Notes: generated from the letters alone by a model not told the origin. 64,000 nt of DNA from Streptomyces sp. M10(2022) (GCA_038070475.1 JAMYWH010000005.1:7509461-7573460); one strand, 5' to 3'; counted from the first letter of the stretch, positions 1 to 64,000 are shown. A program made the numbers and translations.

Positions 1-650
1 TGGGTCGGCGGTCCGGAAGTTGGTCCGGAGCAGCCCGAGTTCGAGCGGGTTCCCCAGGACCACCGATGCAAAGGCGCCGGGGTCGACGCTCGCCATCTCC
101 GGCTCGGCGTAGTAGGCGTTGACGTCGAGATCGACGGGACACCAGGCGGATACGTAGACGATCCTGTCGATCAGGTCGGGGCGGGCGTTGCCGGCCGCGG
201 TGATCGTGGCACCCCTCTGCTGTGGCCGACGAGGACGACCGGCCCGTTCTGCTTCGCCCGTTCGAGGACTTCGATCAGACGGGAGGCGTTGTCGGCGAGG
301 GTGACGCCCTTGATGCCGCCTGGATCGGTGGCCAGCGCGTGGAGATCCTGCGGAGCCTGGTAGCCCACGGGGAAGGTCGCCTCGAAGCCGTGGCCCGGGA
401 GGTCGACGGCGAGCGAGCGGTGCCCGAGCAGGGCCAGTTCGGCCTGCAGCGGTGCGAAGGAGAAGGAATTCCCGAAGGCTCCATGAACGAGAACGAAGGT
501 CGGCATACGCATGCCTCTACCTTGCAACAGCGTGATCTTCGAAACAAGGTCAAGGCGGCCGACGGTGTCCGTTGAATAGAGTGGGTCAACGCCCGGGTTC
601 CACCGGTCCGTTCGGCAGGCTGTGGTGATGGAACTCAGCTGCCCGGCCAC
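1..650 (-). CDS. alpha/beta-fold hydrolase, partial at the window edge and frameshifted near 220
   Basis: ORF 171..650 carries an HGxGG-like start (VLVHGAFGNSFSF) and a GHSxG nucleophile elbow (VLVGHSRG). The homology continues into another frame below 171. Confidence 0.6.
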
Positions 651-849
651 GCAGCGTCGACCCCGGCGTACCGCTTCTGCACGGCGGGCAAGGCTGTCCG
701 GACACCCAGAGATGCAGATGGCGCCGCCGCCGTAGTGTGTCTGGGTGGCAGCGCAGACCGTGGCTGTCGGCCCGGATCAGGTGGGCATGCCGGATCCGCC
801 GTACTTCGGTGCGACTCCCGTGCTCTGCCGCTCGATCAGGCGGGGATGG

Positions 850-2637
850 GCACATGGACGGTGCGCGCAGGTCCTCCGTCCAGCAGCACAGTCAGCTCCT
901 CCGCGGCGGTCCGCCCGAAGGCGATCGTGTCCCGGGAAAGCGCGGCGAAGAACTTCAAGGACAAGGGTGTCGCACGGCACTCCCTGGCTCCGACCGGCTG
1001 GGGCGACGGCGGTGGCGGTACCACCCGCGAGATGATCGCCAAGGCCGCCAGAATGCGCGATCTCGAAGGGGCGGCGACCGTTGCCTGGGAGAAGCCGGCC
1101 GATTTCTTCGCCAGGGCGGAGGCGGAATATCCAGACGCACCGGTGTGGGTGGGGAGCTGTACCTGGAGCTGCACCGTGCCACGCTCACCAGCCTGGCGAA
1201 GACCAAGCAGGGCAACCGGCGCGGCGAGCACCTCCTGCGGGAGGCCGAACTGTGGGCCGCGACCGCCGCTGTGCGGGCCGGTTCGCCCTATCCGTACGAG
1301 CAGTTGGACCGGATCTGGAAGACGGCGCTGCTGCACCAGTTCCACGACATCCTGCCCGGCTCGTCGATCGCCTGGGTGCACCGCGAGGCCGAGAAGACGT
1401 ACGCGGCTGTCGCCGTGGAACTGGACACACTCATCGGGGACGCCCGGCGCGCTCTGGCCGGAGACGGCGATTCGGGCGGGACGCTCCTTTCAACTCCGCC
1501 CCGCACGCCCGCGGCGGAGTTCCGGCCGGTGCGGCCACGGTGGTGACCGTCGGCGCCGCGGGCCGGCTGGCACCGCGGGACGGCGGTGGCTTCGTACTGG
1601 ACAACGGTCTGCTCCAGGTGGAGATCGACAGTGCGGGTCTGGTCGTGTCCGCCTATGACATCGGTGCGGAGCGCGAGTCGGTGGCCCCGGGATGGCGGCG
1701 AACCTGCTGCAGATCCACCCCGATTTCCCGAACATGTGGGACGCGTGGGACGTCGACGAGTTCTACCGCAACACGGTGACCGATCTGACGGAGGTCGACG
1801 AGCTCACACCGGTGGAGAACGGGGAGCGGTCGGGGTCCGGGTCATGCGCAGCTTCGGCGACTCGACGGTCAGCCAGCTGCTGATGCTCGCGCCGGGCGCC
1901 AAGCGGCTCGACATCGACACCGAGGTCGACTGGCACGAGACGGAGAAGTTCCTGAAGGCCGCCTTCCCGCTGGACATTCACGCCGAGCGGTACGCATCCG
2001 AGACGCAGTTCGGGCACTTCTACCGGGCCACGCACACCAACACCAGCTGGGAGGCGGCCAAGTTCGAGGCGTGCAACCACCGCTTCGTGCATCTGGAGGA
2101 GCCGGGATGGGGAGTCGCGCTGACCAACGACTCGACGTACGGCCATGACGTGACCCGTACGGTCCGCGGGTCGGACGCGGGCACGACCACCACTGTCAGG
2201 GTCTCGCTGCTGTGTGCCCCGCGCTTCCCCGACCCGGAGACCGACCAGGGGCTGCACCGCTTCCGGCACGCCCTGGCGCCCGGCGCGGGGATCGGCGACG
2301 CGGTCCGAGAGGGCTTCCACATCAATCTGCCGGAGCGCCATGTCGCGGGGACCGTGAAGTGGCGCCGCTGGTGTCCGCCGACAACGACGCGGTTGTCGTC
2401 AGCGCGGTCAAGCTGGCCGACGACGCGAGCGGAGATGTCGTCGTCCGGGTGTACGAGTCGACGGGTGGCCGGGCTCAAGTACGGCTCGGCCTGGGCTTCG
2501 ACGCATCCGGTGTCGCGGTGACCGACCTGCTGGAGCGGCCGCTCGACGGGGCATCCGTGCCGGCACTGCACGAGGGCGGGGTGCAACTGGCGCTGCGGCC
2601 CTTCGAGCTGGTGACCCTGCGCCTGGCGCGCGGCTGA
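850..2637 (+). pseudogene. GH38 alpha-mannosidase, 5'-truncated (mid and C-terminal domains only) and split over at least 4 frames
   Basis: The fragments carry GWGDGGGGTTREM and LHQFHDILPGSSI, which are GH38 mid-domain motifs. The C-terminal part (FYRATHTNTSWEAAKFE ... VYESTGGRAQVRL) sits in ORFs 1586..2521 and 2212..2637. There is no N-terminal catalytic domain upstream, where a divergent hydrolase gene lies. Confidence 0.75.
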
Positions 2638-2686
2638 TCCAGACGTCCGGGCCGGCCGGTGTGCCGGGCCGGCCCGGACGGCACTG

Positions 2687-9859: not shown

Positions 9860-10703
9860 CGGCGCTTCCTCCTCTTCTTCCCGCGAGGGACGCGCGCCGC
9901 GCGGCCCGCTGCGAAACGGCGTTGTCGGTGGCGCCGGTGATCGCGGCGACCACCTGCTCGGAGGAAACCTCCCGGGCGTCGAACACGCCGTTGTTGCGCC
10001 CGAGCCGGAGCACAGCCACCCGGTCGGCGACGGCCTGGACGTCCTCCATGTTGTGGCTGATCATGACGACGCCGAGCCCGTTGCTCTTCAGCCGCTCGAT
10101 CAGGTTCAGCACCTCGGCGGTCTGCGCGACTCCGAGGGCGGCGGTCGGTTCGTCGAGCAGGACGATCTCCGGTCGGCCGAGCAGGGCCGGGCGATCGCCA
10201 CCGTCTGCCGCTGGCCGCCCGAGAGAGCGGCCACCGGGACGTCGAGGGAGGGATCCGGGCCGACAGTTCGCGCAGCAGTTCCCAGGACCGCTTCTCCATT
10301 GCGACGTCGTCCAGCATCCAGGGCCGGATCTCCTGGCCCAGGAAGAGGTTCGCCTTGACATCGAGGTTCTCGCACAGTGCCAGGTCCTGGTAGACGGTCG
10401 CGATCCCCAGTGCGTGTGCTGCGCTCGGGGAATCGAACGAGACCTCCCTGCCGTGGAAGGAGACCGTTCCCGCGTCGGGCGGGTACACCCTGAGAGGATC
10501 TTCACGAGAGTGGACTTGCCGGCGCCGTTGTCCCCACCACGGCGATCACCTCACCGGCCGCGACATCGAGGTCGATGCCGGTGAGCGCGGCGACCGCACC
10601 GAACTGTTTGCTCACACCCCTCAGCGACAGCACACCGGCGCTGCCGGACACGGGGCTCGTTCCAGGGGCGGACCAGGAGCAGGCCCGGGGAGGTGGAGCT
10701 TGT
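9860..10703 (-). CDS. sugar ABC transporter ATP-binding protein with a single NBD, split over at least 3 frames
   Basis: It carries Walker A (VGDNGAGKSTLVKIL), the signature motif LSGGQRQ and Walker B (IVLLDEPTAALG). The frame breaks sit at G homopolymers. Confidence 0.75.
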
Positions 10704-10737: not shown

Positions 10738-11800
10738 CTACTCGATGTCCAGACGCCGGCAGTCGTCGGCATACACGCGGGTGCAGACGTCCTTGGCCTC
10801 GAGCACCCGTCGGGGCCGAAGACGACCTCCTTGAGGTTCTCCCGCGTCACCACCGTCGGCTCGAACAGCTGCGACGGCGTGTCGAAGAGCGTCGAGTCGG
10901 CCTTGGGCGTCTTGCCCTCCATCAGCTGATGGGCCGCCTCCGCCGCCGCCTCGGCGACGGTCTTGATGGGCTTGGAGATGGTGTTGTACTGGTCGCCCGA
11001 GACGACGCGCTGGACCGCCGCCAGCTCGGCGTCGTTACCGGTGACCGGGGACCTTCACCTCGGCGCCCTTGAAGGCCGCGATCGCTCCACCCCGGTGCCG
11101 TCATTGGCGGCCACCACGCCGGCGATCCGGCCGGGGTACTGGGCGATCTGCCCGCTCGTCCACTGCTGCGCCTTCTCCGGTGACCAGTCCGGGGTGTCGT
11201 ACTCGGCGAGCAACTCGAACCCGCTGTCGTCGACCGCCTTGTGGATGCCCTTCTTGATCAGCCCGGCAGCGGCGTCGGTCGGAGAACCGTTGACCTGGAG
11301 CAGCCCGCCCTCGGCCCCGTCTTCTCGAGATGGCCGACCAGCGACCGGCCGATGGATTCACCGATCGCCTCGTTGTCGAACGAGACATAGAAATCCGCAG
11401 GCTTCTTGGTTACCGGGCGGTCGTAGGCGATCACCTTGACGCCCTGGGAATGTGCCATCTGCACAATGGTGGACGCCGAGTCGGAGTCGACCGGGTCCAG
11501 CACGATGACCTTGGCGCCCTGCGCCATCGCTGAGTTCGCCTGCTGCTGCTGCAACGACGCGTCGCTGTCGGCGTTCTGGTAGATGACCTTGCATTCCTGG
11601 CAGAGCTTGCCCATGCGCTTCTTGAAGAGCGGGGCGTCGTACCGCTCGTACCGGGTGGAGGCGAGGTCAGGCATCAGGAACGCGACCTTGCCCACGCCGC
11701 TGCCGTCGCCGGAACCAGCCGTGACGGGCTCCTCGGCGCACGATACGAGTGAGCCCATGGCGAGGATGCCGATGAGAGCGAGACTTGCCGGTCTTCTCAT
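10738..11800 (-). CDS. sugar ABC periplasmic substrate-binding lipoprotein, frameshifted near 10800
   Basis: It has a lipoprotein signal (MRRPASLALIGILAMGSLVSCAEE) and a periplasmic-binding fold (KVAFLMPDLASTRYERYD, KVIVLDPVDSDS). The stop is TAG at 10738. Confidence 0.75.
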
Positions 11801-11838
11801 GTTCCACTCCTGCTCATGGACGCTGAAGGCAACGCTCA

Positions 11839-11902
11839 GGAAACTCAGATGTTTCATTTGTGTCAACGGGTCGCAGTAATTGAACAATTGCTGTGCTGTT
11901 TC
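11839..11902. promoter_or_regulatory. divergent promoter region with GAAAC/GTTTC inverted-repeat motifs, a candidate DeoR operator
   Basis: This AT-richer intergenic region lies between the substrate-binding-protein gene and the DeoR gene. Two inverted-repeat motifs are seen: GGAAACtcagatGTTTC and GAACAattgctgtgcTGTTTC. Confidence 0.25.
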
Positions 11903-12080
11903 CCGCCTTCGATGTTCGCGCGGTGTGCGGGACGCGGCGTGTGGGATGCGGAGTCCGGCCAACGGTCATCGTTCCCGAGCGCGGCAACAGCGTAGGCAGG
12001 TGTACAAGCGGCCTCTCCGGAAGGAGCGACGGACGAGACGGACGGGGCAGGCCCGGGATGTTCACTTCACAGAAAATGAA

Positions 12081-12930
12081 CAGGAGCTTTCATGGGAGCA
12101 GAGCACCGGCAGCCGGCCGACATGAGCGGCAGGAAACCCGCGAACGCAGAGAGCGGATCAAAGGCCGCGTCGTGGACAGGGGTTCGTTCGGATCGAACAG
12201 CTGGCCGACGAGCTGGGTGTGACCGCGATGACCATCCGCCGGGACCTCGACTACCTGCAGGACCGGGGCTGGCTGAGAAAGGTCCGCGGCGGCGCGACCG
12301 CTCAGCCTTCGACCGCCTTCCACGGCGACGTCCGTCACCGTGCCCGGGCCATGACGGCGGCCAAGGACGCCATCGCCCGCGCCGCCCTGCCTCTGGTCAA
12401 ACCCGGGCAAGCGGTCGTCATCGACGACAGTACGACGGCTCTGGCACTCACCCGTCTCCTGGACCGGCACGCCCCTTGACCGTTATCACCAACTTCGGCC
12501 CGGTCACCCAGATGCTGGCCGACAGCCCGGGTATCGAGCTCATCTCCTGGGCGGCACCTACTACCCGCCTACGACGCCTTCCTCGGCCTGCGCACTGTGG
12601 ACGCCGTGACCAGTCTCAGCGCCGACACACTCTTCGCCTCCACGACCGCCATCACCCGCGGTCACTGCTACCACCAGTCGCAGGAGACGGTGGCGGTGAA
12701 GCGTGCGCTGATGGATGCCTGTGCGCGGAAGATCCTTCTGGTCGACCACACGAAGTTCCGCCGCCGTGGCCTCTACCAGCTGGCCCCGTGACCGCCTTCG
12801 ACCTCGTCATCGTCGACTCCGGCATCCCGGCTTTCGACCTCGATGCCCTCCAGGCCGATGGCGTCGAGGTTCTCGTGGCCCGCCGGGACCACCGAGCCCG
12901 TAGCGGTGTTGGCACCGGTACTGGCACCGG
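12081..12930 (+). CDS. DeoR-family transcriptional regulator, spread over 3 frames
   Basis: It carries ETRERRERI and MTIRRDLDYLQDRGWL (HTH region), then the sugar-binding C-terminal domain (VVIDDSTTALAL, ILLVDHTKF). Confidence 0.75.
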
Positions 12931-13199
12931 CGTGTGGCGCGACGTCCTGCCGCGTCCCCGCATGACGTACGTTTCGGCCTGCCCGCCGATGCCCGACGCA
13001 ATGGCTCACGAGTTCGCTACGGGGAGGGCCCCGGTGGCGACGCCGGGCAGGCCGAGTCGTCCAGGTGGCGAGCGGGGCCGTCCGTCCGCGGATCGACCAC
13101 CAGCACACCGTTGGCCCTGTGCTCGGCCCACCGGCGCAGGCAGAGCGTGCATTCGGCCGTCACGCGGCCTTGGCTATGCATCAACTCCTTAGAGTGCCA

Positions 13200-13620
13200 A
13201 CATGGTTACGGGTGAAAGAGGCGAATCGGAGAGCTCGCGGAACAGGCCGGTGTCAGCCCTCGTTCCTTGCGTTATTACGAGCAGCAAGGACTCTTGTCGC
13301 TTTCCAGGGACGCCAACGGGCACCGGGAGTACGACGAAGCCGCTCTCGACCGTGTACTCAACATCAAGGACCTGATCGCCGCCGGGCTGACAACCGATGA
13401 TGTCCTGCTCTATCGCTCTGCGGGCGCTCTGGGGCATCGTCTGACCGATTCGCCCCGCCGCTCCGTCGAACTGGTCAGCGCGCAGCGGCGGCTGGCGGGC
13501 TGGAGGACAGGATTGCCCGGCTGCATCAGATCAGGGACCGCTTGATCCAGCACAGTGCCGACCTGGAAGACGCGATCGTGTCGCAACTCGCGAGCCCAGG
13601 GTCGAGCAGGGCAGCCTCCG
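13200..13620 (+). CDS. MerR-family transcriptional regulator, frameshifted at the N-terminus
   Basis: It carries the MerR HTH region (IGELAEQAGVSPRSLRYYEQQGLL). Confidence 0.65.
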
Positions 13621-13954
13621 GCGAGGCAGGGCACAGCCAGACCCATTGGCTGTCCGGCTGGGGCACGGCACTCAGGCTCAACCCTGGTCGCCGGGGAGGC
13701 ACTGTAACTGCGGTGTCGCCCGGGCCGGGCACGGGGACGCGCTGAGCCGCTGGTGCAGCTCGGGGTGGTGGCGGTGACGGGCTGCCGAATCCGCGGCTGC
13801 CCCGGGTGCTCAGCTGAGACGCGGGTGGCCGGCCGAGAGCTGAGCGGGACCGGCCACGCCCGGAACGGCAGCAGAGCCCCGGTACGGCAGCAGGGCCCGG
13901 ACCGCGTGTCGCGGTCCGGGCCCTGCCCGGCCTTGCGGCGGCGGCGGTGGTGCG

Positions 13955-14170
13955 TCAGCTCTGTGCGGTGTCGTCGCCGGCCTGCCCGGCGCCCTCGGCT
14001 GCGCCTGCCCTCTCGCGCATCTTGCGCACCAGCTCCGCCTTCTGGTCGGCGGCATCCTGGCGGTCGAGGTTGCGGTGCGGACCGTTGTTCTGCCGTTCGG
14101 CGCGGGACTGCCTCTTGCGCTGGCCGCCGCCCATGCCTATGGGGTTGTTGATGTTCTTGCTTACGGTCAT
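13955..14170 (-). CDS. small highly charged hypothetical protein (71 aa), DUF5302-like
   Basis: The ORF is intact. A GGAGAG Shine-Dalgarno sits 4 nt before the ATG at 14170. Its basic/acidic composition is typical of conserved small actinomycete proteins. Confidence 0.45.
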   Translation of the reverse strand: MTVSKNINNPIGMGGGQRKRQSRAERQNNGPHRNLDRQDAADQKAELVRKMRERAGAAEGAGQAGDDTAQS

Positions 14171-14397
14171 GGGCTCTCCCGGTAATGATGTGAAGTGATC
14201 TACGGATTTATCGGCGGGGACAGGCGGCGACGTCGAAGGACGTCAGCGGGGCCCATCACGCTCTCACTCGTAAATCGGCGTCTGGAAGAACATGACAAAG
14301 ACGTTACCCGGTTCCGTCGGCCCCGCACACCAGACTTTTCGGTTCCCCGGCGTCGGGCGCCGCGGGCGTTGTCAGTGGTCGCGAGCACACTGACGGC

Positions 14398-14570
14398 ATG
14401 AGGATCATCTCACTTGCGCCCGCCGTTACAGGACAACCTTCAGTGGAGCGGAGAATCGGCTGGATCATGGTGCACCGTCCGCTCGCCCGCGATTACGAGA
14501 CCCTCGCCGCCAGCTCCGAAGTAATGATCCAGATCGCCTCGATCGACAATCTCGCCAAGCATATAACAGA
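14398..14570 (+). mobile_element. IS5-family transposase C-terminal remnant
   Basis: It carries ERRIGWIMVHRPLARDYETLAASSEVMIQIASIDNLAKH, which matches the conserved IS5/IS427 C-terminus (…KQWRGIATRYDK…AVTLA…IWL). It lies in a low-GC patch. Confidence 0.55.
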
Positions 14571-14645
14571 CGAGACCGCATCAACCTGGCGAGGAACCTA
14601 CTGTGGCATAAGAGACAATTCGGCTACAGCGAACGCCCCTAAGTC

Positions 14646-15110
14646 TCACTCCAGGAACTCCCGGCTCCCGTGGAAAAGCCCGGCGAAGCTCGTACACGAG
14701 TCCAAATCATCGCATTTCGGGGAGAAGAGGTAGGCCGCCCACTCGCCGTCCGGGCCGATGCCGGTCGGGTCGAGCAACCAGACGTCCTCACCGCTCGCGA
14801 CCTGAAGCGACCGCCGGAACAGTGCCACGAAGTCGTCGTACCCGTCGGCCCCGTCCGCCACCTGCGCCGCGTAAAGGGGCAGAAGGCTGCCACCCATGCC
14901 GGTGTCGCGCATCCAGGTGGCGTCTTCGCAGGAATGGACTTCGTCGATCCAGTCGCGGAGTGCGCCCCATCCGTTCGAGGTCAGCAGGAAACTGCGGTAG
15001 CCGGGCGGAAATCGCAGGCCCTTTGGTGGCCACTCGTCGGAGGCTCCCGAAGCGGTGGAGGTATCCCAACACGCAGTCGGGGAGGGCGGTCGCCACAGCG
15101 ACCGCGTCCA
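14646..15110 (-). CDS. SMI1/KNR4 (SUKH-1) family protein
   Basis: It carries YRSFLLTSNGWGALRDW...GEDVWLLDPTGIG...GEWAAYLF...SFAGLF. The N-terminus is frameshifted. Confidence 0.6.
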   Translation of the reverse strand, partial: WTRSLWRPPSPTACWDTSTASGASDEWPPKGLRFPPGYRSFLLTSNGWGALRDWIDEVHSCEDATWMRDTGMGGSLLPLYAAQVADGADGYDDFVALFRRSLQVASGEDVWLLDPTGIGPDGEWAAYLFSPKCDDLDSCTSFAGLFHGSREFLE

Positions 15111-15692
15111 CCCTGCTCGTACTGATGCTGGGTGCGCCTGGTGTGGGCGGTGAGTCTGCGGCGGACCTGGCGGAGGCGCGGCCCGCCCACGATCGGGAGC
15201 GGGGCGTCGCGGAGTGGCACAGGCGTTGGTGGCCGAGCAGGGCGAGGAGGTGACCCACCTGGCCGCCGTACGGGTCGACGATGCCGGTGGACGCGACGGA
15301 GGTGCTGCTCGCCGGTGCGGTGATCAACATGCTGGCGGTGGGCGTGCTGTCGGCGGCACTTCTGGCCGCCGCAGCCGGGCTCTGGGCGCGTACCGTGGAG
15401 GACGGCGCCCTCGCCAAGCACGCGGGGACGCGCTCTGCACGGTAGGGCGCCCCATGACGGCCCCAGCAGCTGGCGGTCATATCAGCGTTTCTTCGCTGAG
15501 GAGGTGCGCGCATACGCTGGCGTAGGTCGTATGGCACAGAGCCCGCCGCCCGGACCCGGATGCGCGTACGATCTGCGGCCGGGCCGCCGTTCTTCAGCGG
15601 GCCCAGGACCTCCTCCTCGCCCCTGGCAGAGCCCGCCTTCGCGGAGCTGCTCGCCCTGGGGCCGGTGCAACGGCACCCGGCCGGCTGAGCGT

Positions 15693-16410
15693 TCAGCGGC
15701 GCAGCGCCGCCGTCAGCATCGGCAGAGCGTGGCGCAGTTCCCGGTAACCGTAGGTGCCGCTGTGCCCACCTGGGTAGACATGGGTGGTGACGGGCGTGCC
15801 CAGAGACTTGAGACGGTCGCTGAGCATCCGCGTCTCCTCGCCGCACACGGCTTCGGTGATCGATACGACGCCGTCGTCGGCGAGCGCGACCCATTTCTCG
15901 GAACCGGGGATGTGGGGATCGGGCTCGTCGCCGTCGAGCGGGCCGGGTTTGCCGTCGCCGGAGGCGAGGTAGACGGGTGTGTGACGCAGCCCCGGCGTGA
16001 TGGTACGGATCCCAGTCGAGCCAAGTCTTCCACTGCTTCCACGGGTCGCCGAAGATCGCGTAGCCGTCCACGCCGACGAACTTCGCTCCGGAGAGCCACA
16101 TCTCCGGGTGCCGGACCGGGTGCACGGGTGCCCCGAAAGCGGCGACGGCGCCGAACAGCCCGTGATACGGGCGGCGAGCCCCAGGGCGCCGAATCCACCT
16201 TGGGACTCGCCGGCTGCCGCCCTGTTCGGCCCAGCCCCGTAGTCCCGTTCTACCAGGGGCAGGACTTCACGGAGGAAGTACGTACGCACCCTGGGGAGCC
16301 TCCCTGCCGTGGTTCCACCAGTCGGTCCAGAAACCGAACAGCGGCATGCCCGGCATGACCACCAGGACATCACGCAGCTCGGCCAGGTCCTGCACTTCGA
16401 ACAGGTTCAT
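15693..16410 (-). CDS. putative esterase (esterase-D / mycolyltransferase-like alpha/beta hydrolase), frameshifted
   Basis: It carries WMN...VMPGMPLFGFW and AAAGESQGGFGALGLAAR (GxSxG). The first in-frame Met lies about 37 bp from the end of IS5 copy 1. Confidence 0.65.
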
Positions 16411-16450
16411 CCAGGTCGTGTGGTCACCGTCTCCGCCCGCGAACAGCTAG

Positions 16451-17447
16451 GCCCTGTTTCTCGGATCATGTTCGGAGCCAGATGACGAGGGCTGCGAGCG
16501 TGACGGTGCCGAGGTAGATGTAGGCGCGTTTCTCGTAGCGGGTTGCGACGGCGCGGAACCCTTTCAGGCGGTTGATGGTGCGTTCGACGGTGTTGCGTTT
16601 CTTGTAGCGCTCGCTGTCGAAGCTGGTGGGACGGCCTCCTTGTGATCCCCGATTCTTGCGGTGTCTTTGCTGGTCAAGACGTTCCGGAATGGTGTGCGGG
16701 ATCCCGCGTCGTCGCAGATAGCGGCGGTTGCTGCGGGACGTGTAGGCCTTGTCGGCCAGGACCCGGTCGGGTCTGGTTCGGGGCCGGCCGACCCGGCCCG
16801 GGCACGGACACCTGCTCCAGCACACGCTCGAGCTGGGGTCCGTCGCCGTAGTGTCCGGGCGTCAGGACGAGAGCGAGGGCCGGCATCGTCCGTCGGCGGC
16901 GAGGTGAATTTTGGTGGTGAATCCGCCGCGGGAGCGTCCCAGACACTCGCCGATCTGACCACCTCCTCCAGCCGGACGACGAGTTTCCGCAGTACCGGAT
17001 CGACCTGGTTCGTCCCTCGAACATTCCCCTTTGAGGCGACACGGCCGGCGGTGTCTTCCTCGCGCCGGCGGCGTGCTGGTGGGCTCGCACCGCTGTCGAG
17101 TCCACCGATACGTCCCAGTCGATTCGGCCCGCAGCGTCCTCGGCAGCCTGAATCCGCGACAGGAGCATCGCCCACGTTCCGTCCGCTGACCAGCGGCGAT
17201 GCCGCTTATAGACCGTCTCCCAGGGCCCGAACCGCTCCGGCAGATCTCTCCACTGCACGCCCGTCCGGACCCGGTAGAGCACCCGTTGATCACCCGGCGG
17301 TGATCACTCCACCGCCCGCCACGGGCACCACCAGGAGGTAGGAACGACTCCAGTCGGTCCCACTCCGCATTGGTCAGATCTCCACGCCCCATGCAGACAG
17401 CCTGACCCCAACACCCCACTCATGTCAGGAGATCCGAGAAACAGGGC
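16451..17447 (-). mobile_element. IS5-family (IS427-group) insertion sequence, copy 1, with a frameshifted transposase
   Basis: It has perfect 17-bp terminal inverted repeats (GCCCTGTTTCTCGGATC at 16451-16467 and the reverse complement at 17431-17447). A CTAG target-site duplication flanks it (16447-16450 and 17448-17451). The transposase pieces read LYRVRTGVQWRDLP, DSTAVRAHQHAAGARK and DKAYTSRSNRRYLRRRGIPHTIPERLDQ. Confidence 0.9.
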
Positions 17448-17469
17448 CTAGTGCTGAGTCAGGCAACGT

Positions 17470-18700
17470 TGGCCCTGTTGTGATGTGACGCACCGTCCGG
17501 GTGCTTTGCCGGGCGGCGTGGGACGGTCACCCTGTCCGGGTGGCGATACGAGTGCAGGTTCGTGAGATCGATGATGACGAGGGCGGCGGCTGCTGCGGAT
17601 CATCCGCAGGGGCACTGGGTCGGTGGTGACCTGGCGGCGGGCCCAGATGGTCCTGCTGTCCGCACAGGGCATGCCGGTGGCGAGGATCGCCGAGGTGTCG
17701 TTCACCAGCGACGACCGCGTCCGGGATGTGATCCACAACTTCAACACGGACGGCTTCGACTCGCTGTATCCGAAGTATTCCGGCGGCCGGCCGAAGACGT
17801 TCACGCTGCCTGAACGCCGCGAGATCAAGAAGATCGCGAAGTCGAAGCCGACCGAGCACGACCTGCCGTTCTCGACCTGGAGCCTGACCAAGCTGGCGGA
17901 CTTCCTGGTAGCCGAGGGGTGGTCGACGACATCAGCCACGAGGGCCTGCGCATCCTGCTCCGCGAGGAAGGCGTCTCCTTTCAACGCCTGAAAACCTGGA
18001 AGACCTCCAGCGATCCCGACTACGCGGCCAAGAAGGCCCGGGTCGAGCACCTCTACGCGATCGCCGACGGCGAGGTCATACCGAGGACGGCGAACCCGAA
18101 GTCATCTTCTGCATGGACGAGTTCGGACCGCTCAACCTGATGCCGCACCCGGGAGGCAGTGGGCCGAACGCGGAGGCAAGCACAGGGATCCCGACCGTGA
18201 ACCCGCCGGCGGCTCGGGCCACCTACAACCGCTACGGCGGAGTGCGGCACCTGTTCGCCGCCCTGGACCTGGCCAAGGACAAGCTCTACGGTCACATCAA
18301 GCCGGTCAAGAAGCGGACGCAGTTCCTGGAGTTCTGCCGCTACCTCCGCACCCTCTACCCGCGAGAGGTCCGGATCGCGATCATCAGCGACAACTTCTCC
18401 CCTCACCTGACCACGAAGAAATGCCAGCGGGTCGGCACCTGGGCCGCTGCGAACAACGTCGAGATGGCCTACACACCGACCAACAGTTCCTGGCTCAACC
18501 GCATCGAGGCCCAGTTCACAGCCCTGCGCTACTTCACCCTCGACGGCACCGACCACGCCGACCACAAGGAACAGGGCAGCATGATCCGCCGCTACATCAT
18601 CTGGCGAAACCGCCACGCCGACGACCGGCGCCTACGCGCAGTCGTCGACAGGACAAACGTCGCCTGATCCGGCGAGGCCTGGTTCATGGCGTGGGCACGC
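17470..18700 (+). mobile_element. IS630-family element with a frameshifted transposase. The ends are not resolved
   Basis: The transposase is about 350 aa across 3 frames. It has an HTH (RAQMVLLSAQGMPVARIAEV) and a DDE/DDD core (IISDNFSPH, AYTPTNSSWLNRIEAQF). Confidence 0.75.
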
Positions 18701-19467: not shown

Positions 19468-20913
19468 CTAGTAGGGCTTGGTCAGGTTGGTGTGCGTGTG
19501 GGTATGTCGCGGTGGCAGGTGGGGCATGCACCGGCCCAGGTGGCGAGGAGTGATTGCAGCTCGCGGACGATCTGGTAGAGGCTCAGGCCGGTGCCGTGTC
19601 TTTGGGGCGTGGGCCAGCCTCCGCAGGGTGCAGAAGGCATGGGCGAGGGAGGCGAGGGTGACGTGGTGGTGCCAGCCGTTGAAGGTGCGGCCTTCGAAGT
19701 GGGCAAGTCCCAGGGCCTGTTTCATCTCGCGGTAGTCGTGCTCGATGCGCCAGCGGAGCTTGGCCAGGCGGACCAGGGTGGTCAGCGGGGTGTCGGCGGG
19801 CAGGTCGGAGAGCCAGAACTGGATCGGCTCGGCCTCTTTGGCGGGCCACTCGGCCAGTAGCCAGCACTCGGCCAGTTCAACGCCTTCGGTGGCGTCACGG
19901 ATCTCGCGTCCTGCCGGGCGGATCCGCAGGGCCACGAAGCGCGAGTACATACGCTTCAAGCCGGTGCGGCCTTGCCCGGGCGTGAGCCCTCACGCCATGA
20001 GACCGGCTTAGCCGAACCACGACCCGCCTCGATGACCAGCGACTTCACGCTGCGGGCCGGGTCCGGATACCTGGGCACCGGCCGCCGTCCGATGCCGCTG
20101 TAGGGCGGGGTGAACGGACTGGTGGCGGCCGGGTGGGCGGTGGGCGTGGTGGAGATGCCGACCACGTAGTGCAGACCGCGCTGGTTCAAACCCAGACGGA
20201 AGGCCGCCGCGTCGCCGTAGCCGGCGTCTGCCAGCACCAGCGGGACATCGATGTCCCAGGACCGGGTCTCGTCAATCATGTCCAGCGCGAGTTGCCACTT
20301 CTCCACGTGGCCCAGGTCGGCGGGAATGCCGCACCGCTCGCGGCGGGCCACCTTGAGCGGGACGGCCTGCGGTGAAGCCGGGTCCCAGGACTTGGGCAGG
20401 AACAACCGCCAGTTCACCGGCGTCGAGGCGTGGTCGCGGGCCAGGTGCACCGAGACCCCGACCTGGCAGTTGGTGACCTTCCTGCGGTGCCGGTGTACTG
20501 CCGCGACACACACGCCGAAGCGTCGCCATCCTTCAAGAACCCGGTGTCGTCGACGATCAACGCCGTCGGGGCGATTGCCTCGTGCATCCGCCAAGCCAGC
20601 CGGGCCCGCACCTGGGCCCAACTCCACGGACTGGAGGTGACGAAATGCGCCAGCGCTTGCCGGTTGCCATCCTCGCCCAGCCGAGCGGCCATCGGTTCCA
20701 CCGATTTGCGCCGTCCGTCCAGCAGCAGTCCACGCACATACGCCTGCCCCCACCGATACTGGTCCGCGCGCGTGAACGCATCGAACATCTCCGCCGTGAA
20801 CGTCTCCAGGTCCTCCCGGACCTGATCCATCTCCTCAGGTGTCACACACCATCAACGCGCCCACAGACACCAAGACACGCCACCAGTGCGTACATCTGAC
20901 CAAGCCCTACTAG
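19468..20913 (-). mobile_element. IS701-family insertion sequence, copy 1
   Basis: It has 18-bp terminal inverted repeats (CTAGTAGGGCTTGGTCAG / CTGACCAAGCCCTACTAG). The transposase is split over 3 ORFs (MTPEEMDQVREDLETF, VTNCQVGVSVHLA, LFLPKSW, LKWRIEHDYREMKQALGLAHFEGRTFNGWHHH). Confidence 0.9.
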
Positions 20914-21434
20914 AGCGTGGGCCAACGGTCGCCGGGGCGGCGCCGGCCCCAGCCGCGCGGTGTCAGCAGGGCTACCGTGCTTCGGCCTCCGAGAGCAGGG
21001 GAGCTCACGGTCAGTTCGACCAACCGGTCGTTCAGGCGGCGTTCGGCGAGGACCTTGCCGGTGGCACCGGCAAGGTCCTCGCCGAGGAGGTTCCGGCGCC
21101 CAGCAGGGCCTCGGTCGTCAAAACGGTGCGGCGTGTGTGCGTGCGACATACCTCAGTATTCGGCCGGTGGTCCCGCCGCCTTGAACTCGTCGGGCCGCTA
21201 CCGGCGCCGAGGGCACGATCTCCCAGGCTGTCCACGACAACGGCCTGCGGCATCGCCTCACTGCAACCCCGACCAACCTGGCCCGCATCAGTGCCTGGTG
21301 CTCGGATGCCCTGGGCCCGCGCTCGCACCACGCACGAGCTTCGGCTTCTACCGCGGATCTCGCTCGGCTCCGCAGCCGCCCGGCCGGTGGCCGGTTCCCT
21401 CGACCTGGCCCACGGGTTCTGAGGGCATGGCGTC

Positions 21435-22082
21435 TCATGCACCGCGTGCCGCGAGCCCGGTGCGCCAGGCCCAGACCGCGATTTCCACGCGGTTTCTCGC
21501 AGGGAGCTTGGCCTGCACGTTGGTGAGGTGTGTTTTGACCGTGCCCACGGAGATGGAAAGGGCTGTGGCGATCTCGGCGTTGGTCAGGCCCTCGGCCAGC
21601 AGCACGACGACTTCCTCTCGCGCGGAGAGAGCTGGCTGGCGGGCTCCGGCCCGGAGGAGACGGTACGGAGCTGTCTCAGGAGCCGAACGGTGATCGACGG
21701 GCTGACCAGGGAGTCGCCGGCCGCGGCTGCGCGGACCGCCTCGCCCAGCAGGCGCGGGCCGGAGTCCTGAGAATGAATCCGCTGGCACCCGCGTCCACCG
21801 CGCGGGTCAGGTACTCCTCGTCGTCGAAGGTGGTCACGATCACGACGCGGGGCTGGTACGAGGCATGGGGCCGGGTCAGGTGGCGCAAGGCATCCAGACC
21901 GTTCAGGCGCGGCATCCGGATGTCCATCAGAACGACGTCCGGTCGGTGCAGCTCGACCATCTCCAGGGCTTGGAGGCCGTCCCGGGCGTGGGCGACGACG
22001 TGGATGTCGTCCTCGGCGGAGAGGATCATAGACATACCGGTGCGGACGATCTCCTGATCGTCGGCGAGCAGCACCCGGATCA
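21435..22082 (-). CDS. NarL/LuxR-family response regulator
   Basis: It has a receiver domain (IRVLLADDQEIVRTGM, VVLMDIRMP) and a LuxR HTH (LSAREEVVVLLAEGLTNAEIA). It is frameshifted. Confidence 0.8.
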
Positions 22083-22084
22083 CG

Positions 22085-23283: not shown

Positions 23284-23431
23284 TCCGCAGCGTACGTACC
23301 CGCCTCGGGAGGGCTTCTCCACCGAAAGTCGTAATGCTCCGGACAGGCTCCGTCCTTCGGTGGATCCGCGACGGCGCCCGCGCGGACAGGATCGCTAAAA
23401 CGATCGACAAGCAAGCCCGCAGGGGCACCGC

Positions 23432-24668: not shown

Positions 24669-24736
24669 ACCGCCCGGTCCCGGTCTCATCCCCGTAGCGT
24701 GGCAGTCACGTCGATACGTACGAGGGAGCGCCCGCC

Positions 24737-26830: not shown

Positions 26831-26944
26831 GTGATGGGTCCCCACCGGTCATTGTCGGGAGGGACAAGAATGTCGGCAAATCCTGGTCTGTCGGGCAATC
26901 ACCATGCGAAACCGGTTGAAACAGCTGCCGCTCCGCTCAGACAT

Positions 26945-41164: not shown

Positions 41165-41173
41165 GGTTGTCTC

Positions 41174-42079
41174 CATGTGGCCTGGACAGCAGTCGACCGG
41201 TAGCGAGCACAATCCGTACCAGCAAGGACAAGGGGCTCAGGGGCCGGCTCCTGGGCAGCGCCCACGCTCCCGGGTGGGATGCCCTCGCCGCCGCCCCTCC
41301 TCGGCGCGGCGGCGGCAGGACCGCGGTCATCGCCGTCGTGGCGGCGGCTGCCGTTGTGATCGCCGCCGGGGTGACCGGATTCCTCGTACTGGGTGGCGAC
41401 AAGGACGAAAAGGCTGCGCCCGTTGCCACACCCACGGCTTCCGGAACGGGTGCCGGCGCCGCACGCGCGGGCACCGATGGCGAAGCTGTTCCCGTCATAC
41501 CCGGCTGGAAGACGGTGGTGAACCCAAGCGCGGTATCGCCTTCGACGTTCCCGTCGAGTGGGCGCTCAAGTCGGTGACCTGGTCCAGCTATGTCGCGGAC
41601 AACAACGATCCGGAGGAGAAGCCCCTTGTCGGCTTCAGCGCCCCGGCCGTGCTCCAGGAGAAGTGGTGCACGTCCGACGACGACCGGGACGGCAGCATGG
41701 ACGACAGCCCCTGGCCACCGCGGGTTCGCGGGGTGAGAGCGCGGCCAGGAGCACCGGGGAAGCGGCCAGGAGCAACGCGGACCTGTGGGTGTTCGGGGCC
41801 TATGCCCAGCCGGACAGGAAGAAGGTCACCACCGGTGCGGCCGAGTCCTTCACGACCGGGTCCGGTATCACCGGCAGCGTCGCGACGGCCACTTCCTCCG
41901 GTGTGGTGAAGAAGGGCAAGTGCGACACTGACGGCAAGGCCACGGCGTTCGCCTTCAAGAACGCGCAGGGAGAAATCGTCTCCTGGACCTTCATCGGCGC
42001 GCTCGGTGTCGCGGACGAGGTGCCGGACGCGACCGTACGGAAGATCCTCGGCACGGTCCGTCTGCTGGACGGCCACTGA
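41174..42079 (+). CDS. hypothetical membrane-anchored protein, frameshifted
   Basis: It has a Pro/Gln-rich N-terminus, one TM segment (VIAVVAAAAVVIAAGVTGF) and a C-terminal domain ending LLDGH. Confidence 0.45.
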
Positions 42080-42106
42080 TCCGGGCGCAGAGCCCTCCGC
42101 ACATCC

Positions 42107-42146
42107 GAGCGTCCCGGCAGCCGCCCGTCCGGCCGCCGGGACGCTC
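42107..42146 (+). terminator. perfect 12-bp-stem hairpin, a candidate intrinsic terminator
   Basis: The stem is GAGCGTCCCGGC ... GCCGGGACGCTC and lies 28 bp after the stop at 42079. There is no clear U-tract, which is common in high-GC genomes. Confidence 0.4.
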
Positions 42147-42583
42147 TGCTGTCCGGGGCGGGAGGGCTTCGCCCCGGCCGAAGCGGAATCAGAACCACCT
42201 GACCGGACGTACACTCGGCTCATGGGTCGCACTAGTGCCACGAGGGAGTGCCTGCAGCAGGCCACCTCCGTGCTGCGCCCGCTCGCCCGGACCCGGCAGT
42301 CACCGGCCCGGCGACCACAGCAGGACTGGACGCGCCGAAGAACTGCCGCATAGCGCTGCACGGTCACGGCTAGCGATCTTCAGCGGTTTCTGACCGGGTG
42401 ATCCCGGCCGCTGCTTCTCCACGTACATCGCAGGACATTTCTGCCAGGCCGGTCTGTCGTGCCCGGCACCCGCCGGACGGGAACGACCGCCGGCTCCACC
42501 ACATCACCGCAGCTTCGGCTTACCGCCGTCGCTGCTGACAGGCGACGCCGCACCACGGCAGAGCCACCTTCGAAGGGATCATC

Positions 42584-44053
42584 TTGAAACTGAGCGAGCT
42601 GCTGGCAGGGCAGGAGTACCACACTCTCCAGGGTGACCCGGAGAAGACGTGGATCACCGCGGGAACCGCCTTCGACGCGGACCGGGTGGTGCCGGGCTCG
42701 CTTTTCATCGCGGTCCCCGGCCACGTCGAGGAGGTCCGGGCTCAGTCGCCCCGGCCCTCGCACGGGGAGCGGTTGCAGTACTCGTCGACGGCACCGCACC
42801 CGCGCTCCCCGCATCGGAAGCGGATGTATGCGTAGTGCGGGTGCCGGACACCCGTACCGCCGCCGCGGTCGTCGCCTCGCGCTACTTCGGTGAGCCGGGC
42901 CGGCAGATGGACATGGTGGCGATCACCGGCACCAACGGGAAGACCTCGGTCTCGTACATGGTCGAGTCCGTGCTGCGGATCTCCGAGGGCGTGAGGGCCG
43001 GAGTCATCGGAACGGCCGGGAGCAGGATCGGTGACGAACTGATCCCGATGCCGCGGTCGGTGCTGACCACGCCGGAATCCCCGGACCTGCAGTACCTGCT
43101 GGGGTGCATGCGCGACCGGGGTGGCCAGTGTGGTGCTCGAGGCCACGTCGATGGGGCTGCTGACACACCGGGTGGACCGTACGTTCGTCGACGTCGGAGT
43201 CTTCACCAACCTGAGCCAGGACCACCTGGACGACCACGGGACGATGGAGAACTACCGGGACGCCAAACTCCGACTCTTCCAGGGTCTGTGCCGGCACGCG
43301 GTGGTCAACATCGACGACGCGGTGGGCGCCACCATCCCGGCGATGATGCCCGGCGCGGTGACGACGTACGCCCTGGACACCGAGGCGGACTACCGGGCCA
43401 CCGATCTGACCGTCGACGCCCGGGGTACCCGCTTCACGCTGCACCACGACGGCCGCAAGTACCCGGCGGCGATCCCCGCACCCGGCAGGTTCTCCGTCGC
43501 CAACGCGCTGGCGACGGTGGCGGCCTGCCACGTCCTCGGGCACGACCTGGCAGGGCTGGTCGACGCCCTCGAACGGATGCCGCAGATCCCGGGCAGGTTC
43601 GAACGCTTCCAGACCCCGAAGGGCACTTCGGTGATCGTGGACTACGCGCACTCCCGGACTCCTGCACAAGGTCCTGACCACGATCCGCGGCTTCGCCGGG
43701 GCCAAGGTCATCACGGTCTTCGGCTGCGGCGGGGACCGGGACACCACCAAGCGTGCCGAGATGGGGAGATCGCCGGAACCCACTCCGACCTGTGCGTCCT
43801 GACCTCCGACAATCCCCGCAACGAGGACCCCGGGGCGATCATGGACCAGATCGCCCCCGGCATCGAATCGACCGGTACCCCGTTCGAGCGCTTCGCCGAC
43901 CGCCGCCAGGCCATCGCCTCGGCCCTGGCCGCCGCCGGCCCGGACGACATCGTCCTGGTCGCGGGCAAGGGCAGCGAGCCGTATCAGATCGTCGGCGACG
44001 ACCTGATTCCCTTCAGCGACATGGCCACCGTGCACGAACTCGCGGAGGCGTAA
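42584..44053 (+). CDS. Mur-ligase-family protein (MurE-like paralog), frameshifted
   Basis: It carries [53 protein letters not shown] and VAGKGSE. Confidence 0.8.
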
Positions 44054-44110
44054 CAACCCGCCTGTCCCGGGCACGATCGCGTCCGGGACAGGACATCTGC
44101 GCGGGTCCGG

Positions 44111-44766
44111 TCACTCGGGCCACGGTGAGTCCAGGATGGTGCGGACGAAGTCCCCGCGCTCGAAGCCGGGATCGTAGTGCTGGAGCACATCGGCCTTGAC
44201 GTTCCCGAACGTTGTCTCCGGCTTCGGCCGGATTCCGTCCGTGAACGCGCCGAGGATGCGCCGCTTGAAGTCCGGCCGCGGATGCAGCGCGACGATCTCG
44301 GCCCGGTCGGCCTCGGAGATGTCCCCGTAGCCGATGCCGAGCACGTCGTACTCCACACCTGCCGTCACCAGCGCCACCTCGGGTTCCATGTAGGACGGAA
44401 TTCCGGGTGTCGTATGCAGGGCGATGGCTGTCCACACCCGTCGGACACTGTCCTGGGGAACCTGATGGGACTGCAGGAAGCGGCGCGCCTCGTCCGCACT
44501 GTCGACCTCGAAGCGCCGTCCGCTGGAGCGGAACCGCTCACCGAGCCCGAGGTCGTGGAACATGGCGCCGATGTAGAGCAGCTCGGAGTCGAAGCCGAGG
44601 TCGCGGTTGCGCCCTGCAGGGCGCCGAAGAGGAAGACCCGGCGCGAGTGGTGGTAGACCAGCTCACTTGTGGTGTCCCGCACCAGCTCCGTGGCTTCGGC
44701 GGCGAGCCTCGTCTCCGGTACGCGCACACCGGCTACGAGGGGCGGGTCGGTCGTCAACGTGTTCAC
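44111..44766 (-). CDS. HD-domain phosphohydrolase-like protein
   Basis: It carries VYHHSRRVFLFGAL...MFHDLGL. It is frameshifted. Confidence 0.55.
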
Positions 44767-49739: not shown

Positions 49740-50114
49740 CCTAGGACGGGTCCTGGGGCCGTCGTCGTCCGAGCTCAGCTCCTCGGCCCGCAGCGCCAGG
49801 TCCTGCAGCACATCGGCGGAGGTCACGTCCTGCTGGCCGGAGTCGTGGATCTGCGCGAGCGCGATGAACGCCAGCGTGAAGGCGCCGACCAGCTGCTCGA
49901 CCGCGCCGCCGACCTCCCGGCCCACCAGGGCGGCCATCTCCTCGACCGTCGCGTCACCGGGAATGGCGATATGCGGCATCGTCTCGTTGAGAAGAGACGT
50001 CACAATGCTCGGGCCGGCTTCCGGATCGTTCTGGTCCGCGTCGGCGTGGCGCTGCATCTCGCCCGCCTCGGTGAGGATGCCGATCACTCGCTTCAGGACT
50101 TCACTCTGCTCCAT
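49740..50114 (-). CDS. hypothetical protein
   Basis: The ORF 49404..50114 has a plausible N-terminal 125 aa. Its 3' end is uncertain. Confidence 0.3.
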
Positions 50115-50257
50115 ACGGTGAGCATATGCGCCCTCGCGCCCTGATCAGGTGCCCTTCCCGCGGCGTGCGCGACGACCGCAGCCCCGGCCTTGGCAGCTGA
50201 GCTGCTGTGACCGGGGCTGCGTCGTAGGGCGGGCGGCCGTGCGGGGCCGGCCGTGCT

Positions 50258-51633
<1,376 letters not shown>

Positions 51634-51637
<4 letters not shown>

Positions 51638-61584: not shown

Positions 61585-61939
61585 ACGTTCCCGTCCGGAT
61601 CCGAGCGCCCCGTGGCCGGACAGCACCGGCGCGCGGGACCGGAGAAGGCGCGCCCTCCGCTGAATTCGACGCGTCGCACCTCGCGTTCCAGCGGCATGAT
61701 CAAATCCAGCGCCGACGCGGACGGCGACGGAAAGGGATCAGCGCCCTGTGGCGGGGCGGGTGATGTGCGGGATGCTGATTTGTCGGGCATGGCCTCTGCC
61801 TCGCCCGACGCGGGCTTCTCCGCTCCCGCTCCAACGGTGCCGCCGGTCATCCCGGCCGCCCCGGCAGCCGTCCCTGAGGTGTTCCCGCCCGTAGCCCTTG
61901 ACCTGGCTCCGGGCACCGGGCTTCGCAGGGAGGGCCGGA

Positions 61940-62843
61940 TCACAGCGGCCCGGCCACCGTCGGCGTCCTGGGGTGCCCGGTCCGTGGTCGGCCCGGTCCC
62001 TGACAGCTGCGCGGCCAGCCGTTCGGTGGTCAGCAGGATCAGCCCGCCCGCCGCCACCACACCGCAGGCGAGCGCGAGCACCGTGCCCGTTGTCCCGTAG
62101 CGGAACTGCTCTTCGAACAGGGTGATGCCCACTGCCGCTGCGACCACCGGATTCACCACGGTCACGGTCGCCAGCGGCGCCGTCAGGCCGGCCCCGCGGT
62201 ATGCCGCCTGGGACAGCAGGAGCCCCGCCGCCGCGAGGCCTGCGATCACCAGCAGAGTCGGCAGACCCGAGGTCACCGAACCCGATGTCCACTCCATGGC
62301 CACCGTCTTGGTGAACACCGAAGCCATACCGAACGCCACGCCGGCGCCCGTGGCCAGTACGACGCTCCGCAGCATCGGCCGGTGCAGAGACTTCGCGACG
62401 AGCAGGAGCGCCGCCACCGCACCGAAGGCCACCATCGCCAGCATCAACTGCTCCGGCGCGTCCAGCGTGTGCGACCCGGCGCTCCCCGTGAGCGCCATCA
62501 GCCCGGCCAGGCCCACCGTGGCCATGATCGCGCCGCGCCAGGCCGTCGAGCCCGCTTTGCGGCGGACGAACAGCGCCGCCATCGGCAGGGCGAACACGAT
62601 CGTGAGCGCGCCGAGCGGCTGGACGAGGCTGAGCGGCCCGTAGGCCAGGGCCACCACATGCAGCACGGCGCCCACACCGTTCAGCGCCACCGCCGCCCAC
62701 CAGGCGGCGTTTTGCAGCAGCGCGTACGAGCGGCCGTCACCGGCAGCGGCCACGCGCTCCTGGACGATCGCCCCGGCCGCATAGGCGACCGCGGAGATCA
62801 GTGACAGCAGCACAGACAGCGCAAGGGAACTCATGTACACCAC
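61940..62843 (-). CDS. multi-TM membrane protein (DMT/EamA-like or NIPA-like). The 3' end is uncertain
   Basis: It has about 9 predicted TM helices. The ORF runs on into a Gly/Ala/Pro-rich tail that is probably not coding. Confidence 0.5.
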
Positions 62844-63140
62844 GATGTCCCGTCGCGGCCGCTACGTCGTCGTCCTTGAGGCGGCGATTCGGCATACTGC
62901 TCTAGTAGTACGTCCATCACTTCCACGTCCTCCTCTCGACGGTAGTCCTCCTCGGCCCATAGCTCAGAAGTTGCGCCGGGGCGGCTACATTTGGCTGCCC
63001 GGCCGGCACTGCGAGTGCCCGGTACCTGACCCCAGCAAGCCGGGCACGGTCACCGGATCATGGCCCAACTCTTGACGCGGACACTGCGGGAACAAAGAAT
63101 GATCGCGCGTTGACAACGTTGTCCAAGGAGGAGTCCAACC

Positions 63141-64000
63141 ATGCACCGGACCCAACGGCCGAGACTGCGGGGACCGGCCGCCGTACTCGCGGCCGCCGCG
63201 CTCTCACGGGCGCCCTCACCACCGGAGCCACGGCCCAGGCCGCGCCCCGGCCACAGGGGCAGCTGACCGATCTGGTCAACCCGTTCATCGGCACCCAGAA
63301 CGAGGGCAACACCTACCCCGGGGCCGCTGTCCCGTTCTCCATGGTCCAGCTCTCGCCCGATACCGGCCACGCGGTCGGCTACGACTACACGGACGATCAC
63401 ATCCGTGGATTCAGCAGCACGCATATCTCCGGCGTCGGCTGCGGTCTCGGCGGTGATCTGCCCGTGCTGCCCACCACCGGAGACATCACCGAGACGGACA
63501 ACACGAAGTACGCGGCCGGATTCAGTCACGACAACGAGAAGGCGAGCCCCGGCTACTACCAGGTCGGCCTCACCTCCTACGGCGGTATCAACGCCGAACT
63601 GACCGCGACGGAGCGTACCGGGGTCCAGCGCTACACCTTCCCGGCCACCGACAAGGCCAACGTGCTGCTCAACGCGGGCCAGTCGCTGCACAAGACGGTC
63701 AGCACCTCAGTGGAGGTCCTGGACTCCCGCACGGTCAGGACCGCCATCACCGGCCGCGGTTTCTGCCAGGACACCAAGCCGTACACGCTCTACACCCTCA
63801 CGCGCTTCGACCGGCCCTTCACCACCTCGGGCACCTGGAAGGACGGGGCGGTCACCGGAGCCAAGAAGTCCACCGGCGAGGCCGGCAACGGCGCCTGGGT
63901 GCGATTCGACACGACGAAGGACCGCACCGTCGAGGCGACGACGGCGATCAGCTTCGTCGACGCCGACGGCGCCGCGCGCAACCTGCGGGCCGAGGGCGGC
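63141..64000 (+). CDS. GH92 alpha-1,2-mannosidase-like, 3'-partial at the window edge, frameshifted in the signal region
   Basis: It carries LVNPFIGTQNEGNTYPGAAVPFSMVQLSPDT and FSSTHISGVGCGLGGD. Confidence 0.8.

Follow-up and report, generated by a model that had tools for sequence, protein, structure and literature searches.

Pervasive frame breaks in a 64-kb Streptomyces genome segment are very probably consensus errors, mostly at short homopolymers

The DNA analysed here is a stretch of 64,000 nucleotides (nt) from Streptomyces sp. M10(2022) (GCA_038070475.1, JAMYWH010000005.1:7509461-7573460), to which we refer at its full length, positions 1 to 64000, as the window. It is Streptomyces-type DNA with a GC content of 69.4%, and it carries genes for GH38, GH1, GH3, GH2-like and GH92 glycosidases and for sugar ABC transporters, together with ROK, LacI and DeoR regulators, a Dyp peroxidase, gnd, panD, a two-component system and several insertion sequences (ISs). 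Along the whole of it the reading frame hops every 300-500 bp. The original prediction, made from the sequence alone, had held that nearly every recognisable gene is split and that the breaks are technical insertions or deletions (indels) rather than pseudogenes. The analysis described below supports this view, and we conclude with high confidence that the frame breaks are sequencing or assembly consensus errors and not mutations.

Frames were segmented with a self-trained codon-position hidden Markov model (HMM), which divided the window into 114-186 frame segments. Between segments of at least 75 nt the frame hops 96 times on the same strand, and 75 of these hops go in the -1 direction, which corresponds to a one-base deletion. 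When frame pieces were joined and scanned against Pfam, 35 frame junctions, distributed over approximately 20 genes, fell within single contiguous domain alignments, and the splitting of nearly every recognisable gene was thereby borne out. The domains spanning junctions include GH38, 2-Hacid_dh, ABC_tran, FGGY, DeoRC, ROK, GH1, GH3, DUF1996, SBP_bac_1 and DDE_5; single alignments cross three junctions each for ROK, DUF1996, ABC_tran and GH3, and two for GH1. PanD is a clear unbroken case, with no junction within its domain nor at its start or stop. Two glycosidase genes illustrate the fragmentation:

891-2625, plus strand: GH38 alpha-mannosidase in six frame pieces, its N, middle, C and C2 domains colinear over five junctions
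49749-51637, minus strand: GH1 beta-glucosidase, split into at least three frame pieces

The Glyco_hydro_38C alignment, which covers the complete model (1-206 of 206), crosses two of the five junctions in the GH38 gene. For the GH1 gene a single frame aligns to model positions 4-361 of 453, and the joined pieces align to positions 4-448 of 453 (E = 2.5e-153) across the two junctions. G/C runs of at least 4 are enriched approximately threefold within 5-10 nt of the junctions, as judged by shuffled and control comparisons, and the HMM frame-switch positions match the deletion sites resolved by alignment to within a few nt. A break can also fuse what should be separate: between 56966 and 58117 (minus strand) an unbroken frame of 384 codons leads from the Fn3-like C-terminal domain of the GH3 glycosidase into the LacI-family helix-turn-helix of the next gene, a false GH3-LacI fusion that arises because a frameshift bypasses the GH3 stop codon.

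The single break that the original prediction had singled out lies in the nucleotide-binding motif of an ABC transporter, where it had expected GGGGG and found one G missing:

10488-10540, minus strand: ATPase of a sugar ABC transporter, Walker A region, in which two G runs 40 nt apart have each lost a base

The sequence GTGGTGGGGACAACGG occurs once in the window (10525-10540, minus strand), and VVGDNGAGKST becomes readable only when GGGG at 10532-10535 is taken as GGGGG, exactly as had been proposed. Another G run is one base short 40 nt downstream: ILSGVY is read only if GGG at 10488-10490 is lengthened to GGGG. The HMM switches frame at 10533/10534 and again at 10493/10494, and the ABC_tran alignment is the one noted above that crosses three junctions.

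We then asked how run lengths in the window compare with those of Streptomyces DNA at large, the expectation being fitted, with GC content matched, to 4-kb tiles from control Streptomyces loci that total 1.5 Mb. G/C runs of five number 11 in the window and runs of six or more are absent, against approximately 141 runs of at least five expected; the control loci hold approximately 150 such runs per 64 kb, with a minimum of 86. The deficit is spread evenly, with 0-2 runs of at least five in each of the 16 window tiles, as compared with control averages of 6.4-9.8 across GC bins and never fewer than 2 in a tile. Counted over one orthologous stretch of 9.6 kb, runs of this length number 20-28 in the relatives and 1 in the window. 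Shorter runs, of 1-4, occur at normal frequency or in slight excess (486 runs of four for 452 expected, and 2011 runs of three for 1867 expected), and the slight excess of three- and four-base runs is what would be expected if longer runs had collapsed into them. Ordered by run length, shortening has removed approximately 92% of the expected runs of at least five, approximately 19% of conserved four-base runs (3 of 16 that are unsubstituted) and less than 1% of runs of two or three.

The few five-base runs that survive share a context. Eight of the 11 stand in CCCCCA/TGGGGG, as against 18% in the controls (p = 1.2e-4): C5 at 20747, 29070, 45054, 47749, 54273, 56707 and 57692, and G5 at 30025. 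CCCCCG, the commonest context in the controls (64%), is almost wholly collapsed in the window. Such dependence of survival on the flanking base is expected of signal calling, not of mutation, and the CCCCCA pattern could help to recognise the basecaller or consensus tool that was used. Chance was ruled out by the shuffled and control comparisons for the junction enrichment, the five-base context and the run deficit alike.

Individual lesions were resolved against relatives in five syntenic blocks within 32907-44749, 10,286 nt in total, aligned with up to 20 relatives; these multiple alignments of orthologues served as the reference, the closest relatives being approximately 80-90% identical at the nucleotide level. 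Counting private indels whose length is not a multiple of three, the window has 32 deletions (36 nt) and 1 insertion, and each of 16 relatives has 0-1 and 0-3, respectively. Of the 32 deletions, approximately 11 border a four-base G/C run that is often 5-6 bases long in relatives, approximately 12 border a three-base G/C run for which relatives have a conserved run of 4, one borders a T run of 3, and approximately 8 fall in two-base runs or at isolated bases. The claim that the breaks sit in G/C runs thus holds for most of the 32, though not for all. The picture drawn by the original prediction is refined accordingly: all errors resolved to the nucleotide but one are deletions, and they are found in runs of 2-4 and in A/T runs as well as in long G/C runs. 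The measured rate of 3.1 events per kb (32 in 10,286 nt) extrapolates to approximately 200 deletions in the window, in agreement with a mass balance of the run-length spectrum, in which approximately 130 collapsed runs of at least five and approximately 90 four-to-three events predict approximately 220; the balance also fits the approximately 19% of conserved four-base runs that are shortened.

One private difference in the same blocks is of another kind. A 51-nt in-frame insertion at 38280-38330, private to the window against 16 syntenic relatives, adds a Pro/Ala/Arg-rich C-terminal tail to a cysteine-synthase-like gene just before an enolase-superfamily gene, and it looks like genuine lineage-specific variation rather than error.

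Reading frames were next repaired by filling only the private gaps whose length is not a multiple of three. The loci concerned are:

32907-34311, minus strand: gnd (6-phosphogluconate dehydrogenase) in four frame pieces, with one-base deletions at approximately 33409, 33686 and 34121
42493-44043, plus strand: Mur-ligase-like gene with eight private deletion events
34442-39605, plus strand: syntenic block of approximately 5.2 kb with approximately 20 window-private deletions of 1-2 nt (sites from 34757 to 39544)
approximately 35050-39460, plus strand: four contiguous genes, including the cysteine-synthase-like gene and the enolase-superfamily gene

Repair extended the longest coding open reading frame (ORF) of gnd from 176 amino acids (aa) as read to 469 aa, next to 468 aa in the relative L007, and that of the Mur-ligase-like gene from 325 to 519 aa, the length found in L007. 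The repaired four-gene block yielded ORFs of 447, 289, 376 and 394 aa with an ATGA stop/start overlap as in the relatives; near 37286 and 37328 the alignment places C4-to-C3 changes in the conserved codons for RTPL and HPGFW. No nonsense codon was left after repair in any ORF tested, and deletions of 1-2 nt were the sole lesions that needed repair. Gene and pseudogene calls in this region, for which the original prediction had advised caution, should not be trusted. Repaired Gnd found its best match, in a search of 5.8 billion proteins, in the 480-aa Gnd of Streptomyces atratus, of the S. atratus group (93% identity over 100% of the length). Syntenic loci of S. atratus-group Streptomyces are approximately 80% identical to the window at the nucleotide level, and in a scan of genome contigs the enolase-like protein had a top match of 87% aa identity.

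Substitutions tell the same story as the repaired frames. Differences at codon positions 1, 2 and 3 amount to 3.7, 2.4 and 25.1% between gnd and L007, and to 8.5, 7.2 and 27.1% between the Mur-ligase-like gene and its relatives, and the third-position excess between window and relative is indistinguishable from that of intact relative-to-relative comparisons. With three frameshifts per kb, no lesions of any other kind and purifying selection undiminished, the genes do not make credible pseudogenes.

The window also contains an internal control in the form of two copies of one IS701-family element:

19468-20913, minus strand: IS701-family copy a, 1446 nt, with terminal inverted repeats CTAGTAGGGCTTGGTCAG, its transposase broken by three one-base deletions
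27792-29236, minus strand: IS701-family copy b, 1445 nt, its transposase broken by four one-base deletions

Membership in the IS701 family is indicated by a DDE_5 alignment over positions 1-271 of 272 (E = 7.7e-86), which in copy b runs across two junctions, by the length of approximately 1.45 kb and by the 18-nt terminal inverted repeats present in both copies. The comparison set comprised three elements of 1449-1450 nt (80-85% nucleotide identity), two of them with annotated 416-aa transposases, and two closer relatives of 91.5% and 88.5% nucleotide identity, of which L084, at 91.5%, is the closest intact one; L084 suffices to polarise the three differences between the copies, not to prove the two deletions that they share. 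Aligned with each other, copies a and b show 0 substitutions and three internal 1-nt gaps in 1445 nt, all of them changes of run length (coordinates on the plus strand):

GGGG at 19604-19607 in copy a, GGG at 27928-27930 in copy b: a run of four in the intact relative L084
CC at 19970-19971 in copy a, CCC at 28293-28295 in copy b: a run of three in the intact relatives, hence a deletion in copy a
GGG at 20322-20324 in copy a, GG at 28646-28647 in copy b: a run of three in L084 and L001, hence a deletion in copy b

That the copies differ only at three homopolymer-length positions had been stated correctly, with coordinates that are 3-15 nt off. At all three sites the longer allele is that of the intact homologues, and each difference is therefore a deletion in one copy; the site at 19970-19971, for example, reads as G3 to G2 on the sense strand when copy a is set against the intact relatives L084 and L085. 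Two further deletions are common to both copies, one after 20480/28803, at an isolated C, and one from A4 to A3 on the sense strand (TTT at 19601-19603/27925-27927), so that all length differences between the copies and intact relatives are deletions. When the longer allele was taken at each site where the copies differ and the two gaps common to both were filled, the transposase ORF came to 416 aa, with 95% identity to an intact protein over 100% of its length.

Some features surround this pair. The copies lie in direct orientation and bracket approximately 6.9 kb (20914-27791) that holds a HisKA_3 kinase with a LuxR-type response regulator, a VanZ-like gene, panD, a GNAT gene, an Orn/DAP-type decarboxylase gene and an IS5/IS4-family element. 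In its layout the region is reminiscent of a composite transposon, with no target-site duplication seen: no direct repeat flanks either IS701 copy or the pair, and the terminal CTAG could be target-derived. The IS4/IS5-family transposase (DUF4096 and DDE_Tnp_1, 26942-27753) directly adjoins copy b, and its DUF4096 alignment begins at model position 27, beside a frame junction. An IS630-like transposase (HTH_29/HTH_32 and DDE_3) in three frame pieces lies at 17593-18688, approximately 800 bp from copy a, which makes 17.5-29.2 kb an IS-rich patch. Upstream of it, 11776-17590 is placed mostly in the non-coding state by the codon-position HMM and contains a DeoR regulator gene (12180-12892) and ORFs without a Pfam match; tiles from 12 to 20 kb have a lower GC content (65-68%). 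This interval may be horizontally acquired DNA, or may merely be harder to segment.

Taken together, the run-length spectrum, the direction of the hops, the repair, the substitutions, the IS copies and the context of the surviving five-base runs all point to errors of technical origin. The process that generated the consensus would have under-called homopolymer length, shortening at least approximately 90% of G/C runs of five or more, mostly to four, and about one fifth of four-base runs to three, while a small fraction of shorter runs and of A/T runs would have lost one base. The outcome would be approximately 3 one-base deletions per kb, or approximately 200 in the window, a density at which nearly every gene shifts frame every 300-500 bp. 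It corresponds to approximately Q25.

As to the kind of data, the window would appear to derive from long reads without accurate polishing, most plausibly nanopore reads and possibly low-coverage PacBio continuous long reads (CLR). Long reads are suggested because a single contig separates two identical IS copies of 1.45 kb that lie 8.3 kb apart, and also because retention of five-base runs depends on flanking sequence. In short-read public assemblies the same IS701 lineage very often makes up an entire contig of 1,335-1,450 nt, its copies collapsed into one (L084, L085 and many other matches). Residual errors in PacBio CLR assemblies are mostly single-base homopolymer indels, and low-coverage or unpolished CLR data share with the window long reads that resolve IS repeats; their errors are, however, more random, and neither near-total loss of five-base runs nor flank dependence would be expected after consensus. 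Nanopore sequencing makes systematic errors that consist mainly of indels in homopolymers, with shifted reading frames and inflated numbers of pseudogenes as the result (PMC8011154); false deletions predominate, and they are most frequent after runs of 4-5 nt (PMC12007338). The deletion bias of the window, its peak at runs of 4-5 nt, the dependence on context and the density near Q25 agree with what has been published on nanopore assemblies that lack accurate polishing (PMC8011154, PMC12007338).

The unpolished or lightly polished R9-era nanopore assemblies described for Homopolish (PMC8011154) and Kastor (PMC12007338) are the closest parallel in several respects, with homopolymer indels and a deletion excess that peaks after 4-5-nt runs, with shifted frames and inflated pseudogene counts, and with errors that can be corrected from homologues as in the repair described above. 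The approximately 3 events per kb seen here fall within the range for polishing with Racon only, for example 11,215 deletions in an E. anophelis isolate (PMC8011154). The window differs in that its platform is undocumented, in that loss of five-base runs is near-total (approximately 92%) and in that G/C runs dominate in this 69% GC genome, whereas Kastor saw more A/T-run errors in a genome of 59% GC (PMC12007338). Our literature search found no directly relevant paper on nanopore homopolymer frameshifts in Streptomyces.

Several points weigh against reading the breaks as consensus errors. About a quarter of the resolved deletions lie in runs of 2 or at single bases, such as the isolated C after 20480, and the near-complete loss of five-base runs exceeds the error rates given in PMC8011154 and PMC12007338. 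The true base at each site is deduced from orthologues that are approximately 80-90% identical at the nucleotide level, the two deletions common to both IS copies could be ancestral mutations rather than reproducible errors, and sequence by itself would not identify the platform. The last of these bears on the suggestion that the errors were of long-read or flow-based origin, of which long reads appear the likelier half, given the resolved IS copies, and the flow-based half is disfavoured. An artefact of a flow-based short-read platform (454 or Ion Torrent) in place of long reads is improbable: the chemistry does miscall homopolymer length, and the errors here are homopolymer-associated, but flow-based errors comprise over-calls as well as under-calls, and few of them are left in the consensus at runs of 2-5, whereas 32 of the 33 indels here are deletions, runs as short as 2-4 are affected, and two identical 1.45-kb IS copies are correctly placed 8.3 kb apart in one 64-kb contig.

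The breaks could alternatively be real, in whole or in part. Genuine, very recent mass pseudogenisation, through a homopolymer-contracting mutator or relaxed selection, would mean that most G/C runs really are one base shorter; the sequence as given does contain the frameshifts, and two deletions are common to both IS copies, as inherited mutations would be. We nevertheless regard it as highly improbable, since mutation would not strip approximately 92% of runs of at least five uniformly from coding and non-coding DNA without nonsense codons or larger deletions, and it is opposed by undiminished purifying selection in the substitution patterns, an indel-to-substitution ratio of 3:0 between the IS copies, an extreme deletion bias of 32:1 and five-base survival that depends on the flanking base. 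Approximately 90% of genes, including gnd and all transporters and regulators here, would be frameshifted, which would be inviable if genome-wide. It is scarcely conceivable that the deletions are real and stem from a replication or repair defect that contracts G/C homopolymers in a strain or lineage in culture, too recently for relaxed-selection substitutions to have accumulated; if true, such a defect would be an unprecedented mutational catastrophe caught in a genome. A mixture, in which most breaks are errors and a minority real (the two shared IS701 frameshifts, and a few true pseudogenes hidden among the rest), is unlikely. Some true pseudogenes are normal in bacterial genomes (PMC8011154), and the shared deletion after 20480/28803 lies outside a homopolymer, next to a substitution. 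The same sequence context would, on the other hand, be expected to repeat systematic errors in both copies, and copies that are 100% identical imply that the element moved not long ago, something that an intact transposase would make easier; real frameshift and artefact are not distinguished here by the present evidence.

Known biological systems with interrupted or length-dependent frames were also compared. Reductive evolution in Mycobacterium leprae leaves many interrupted genes over long regions. Real decay of this type mixes nonsense codons, insertions, deletions of all sizes and relaxed substitutions, in contrast to the window, where only 1-2-nt deletions occur and selection is intact. 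Pseudogene decay was rejected on both counts: the lesions consist of 1-2-nt deletions alone, with no stops after repair, and the third-position excess is retained, with profiles that match those between relatives. Phase-variable contingency loci and programmed frameshifting resemble the window in that homopolymer length sets the reading frame. Both, however, rely on single long tracts, usually of at least 7-8 nt, in specific genes; the window has approximately 200 short-run sites everywhere, and long tracts are absent. Phase variation and programmed frameshifting were rejected, no run in the window being longer than 5 and breaks occurring in all gene classes and in non-coding DNA.

For work on this assembly the consequences are practical. 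Calls of ORFs, pseudogenes, fusion proteins and novel small genes made on the window are unreliable, and presumably those on the whole assembly are too; findings in the window that depend on frames, on where genes begin and end or on signs of decay should be set aside, or worked out anew once the frames are repaired. A test of the run-length spectrum, which asks whether G/C runs of at least five are absent and runs of 1-4 normal, is nearly free and could flag such assemblies automatically. The finding itself is a technical artefact of a known kind and no new biology. On the best explanation, of which as a whole we are strongly persuaded, the underlying organism is an ordinary Streptomyces with intact genes, whose closest relatives found are strains of the S. 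atratus group.

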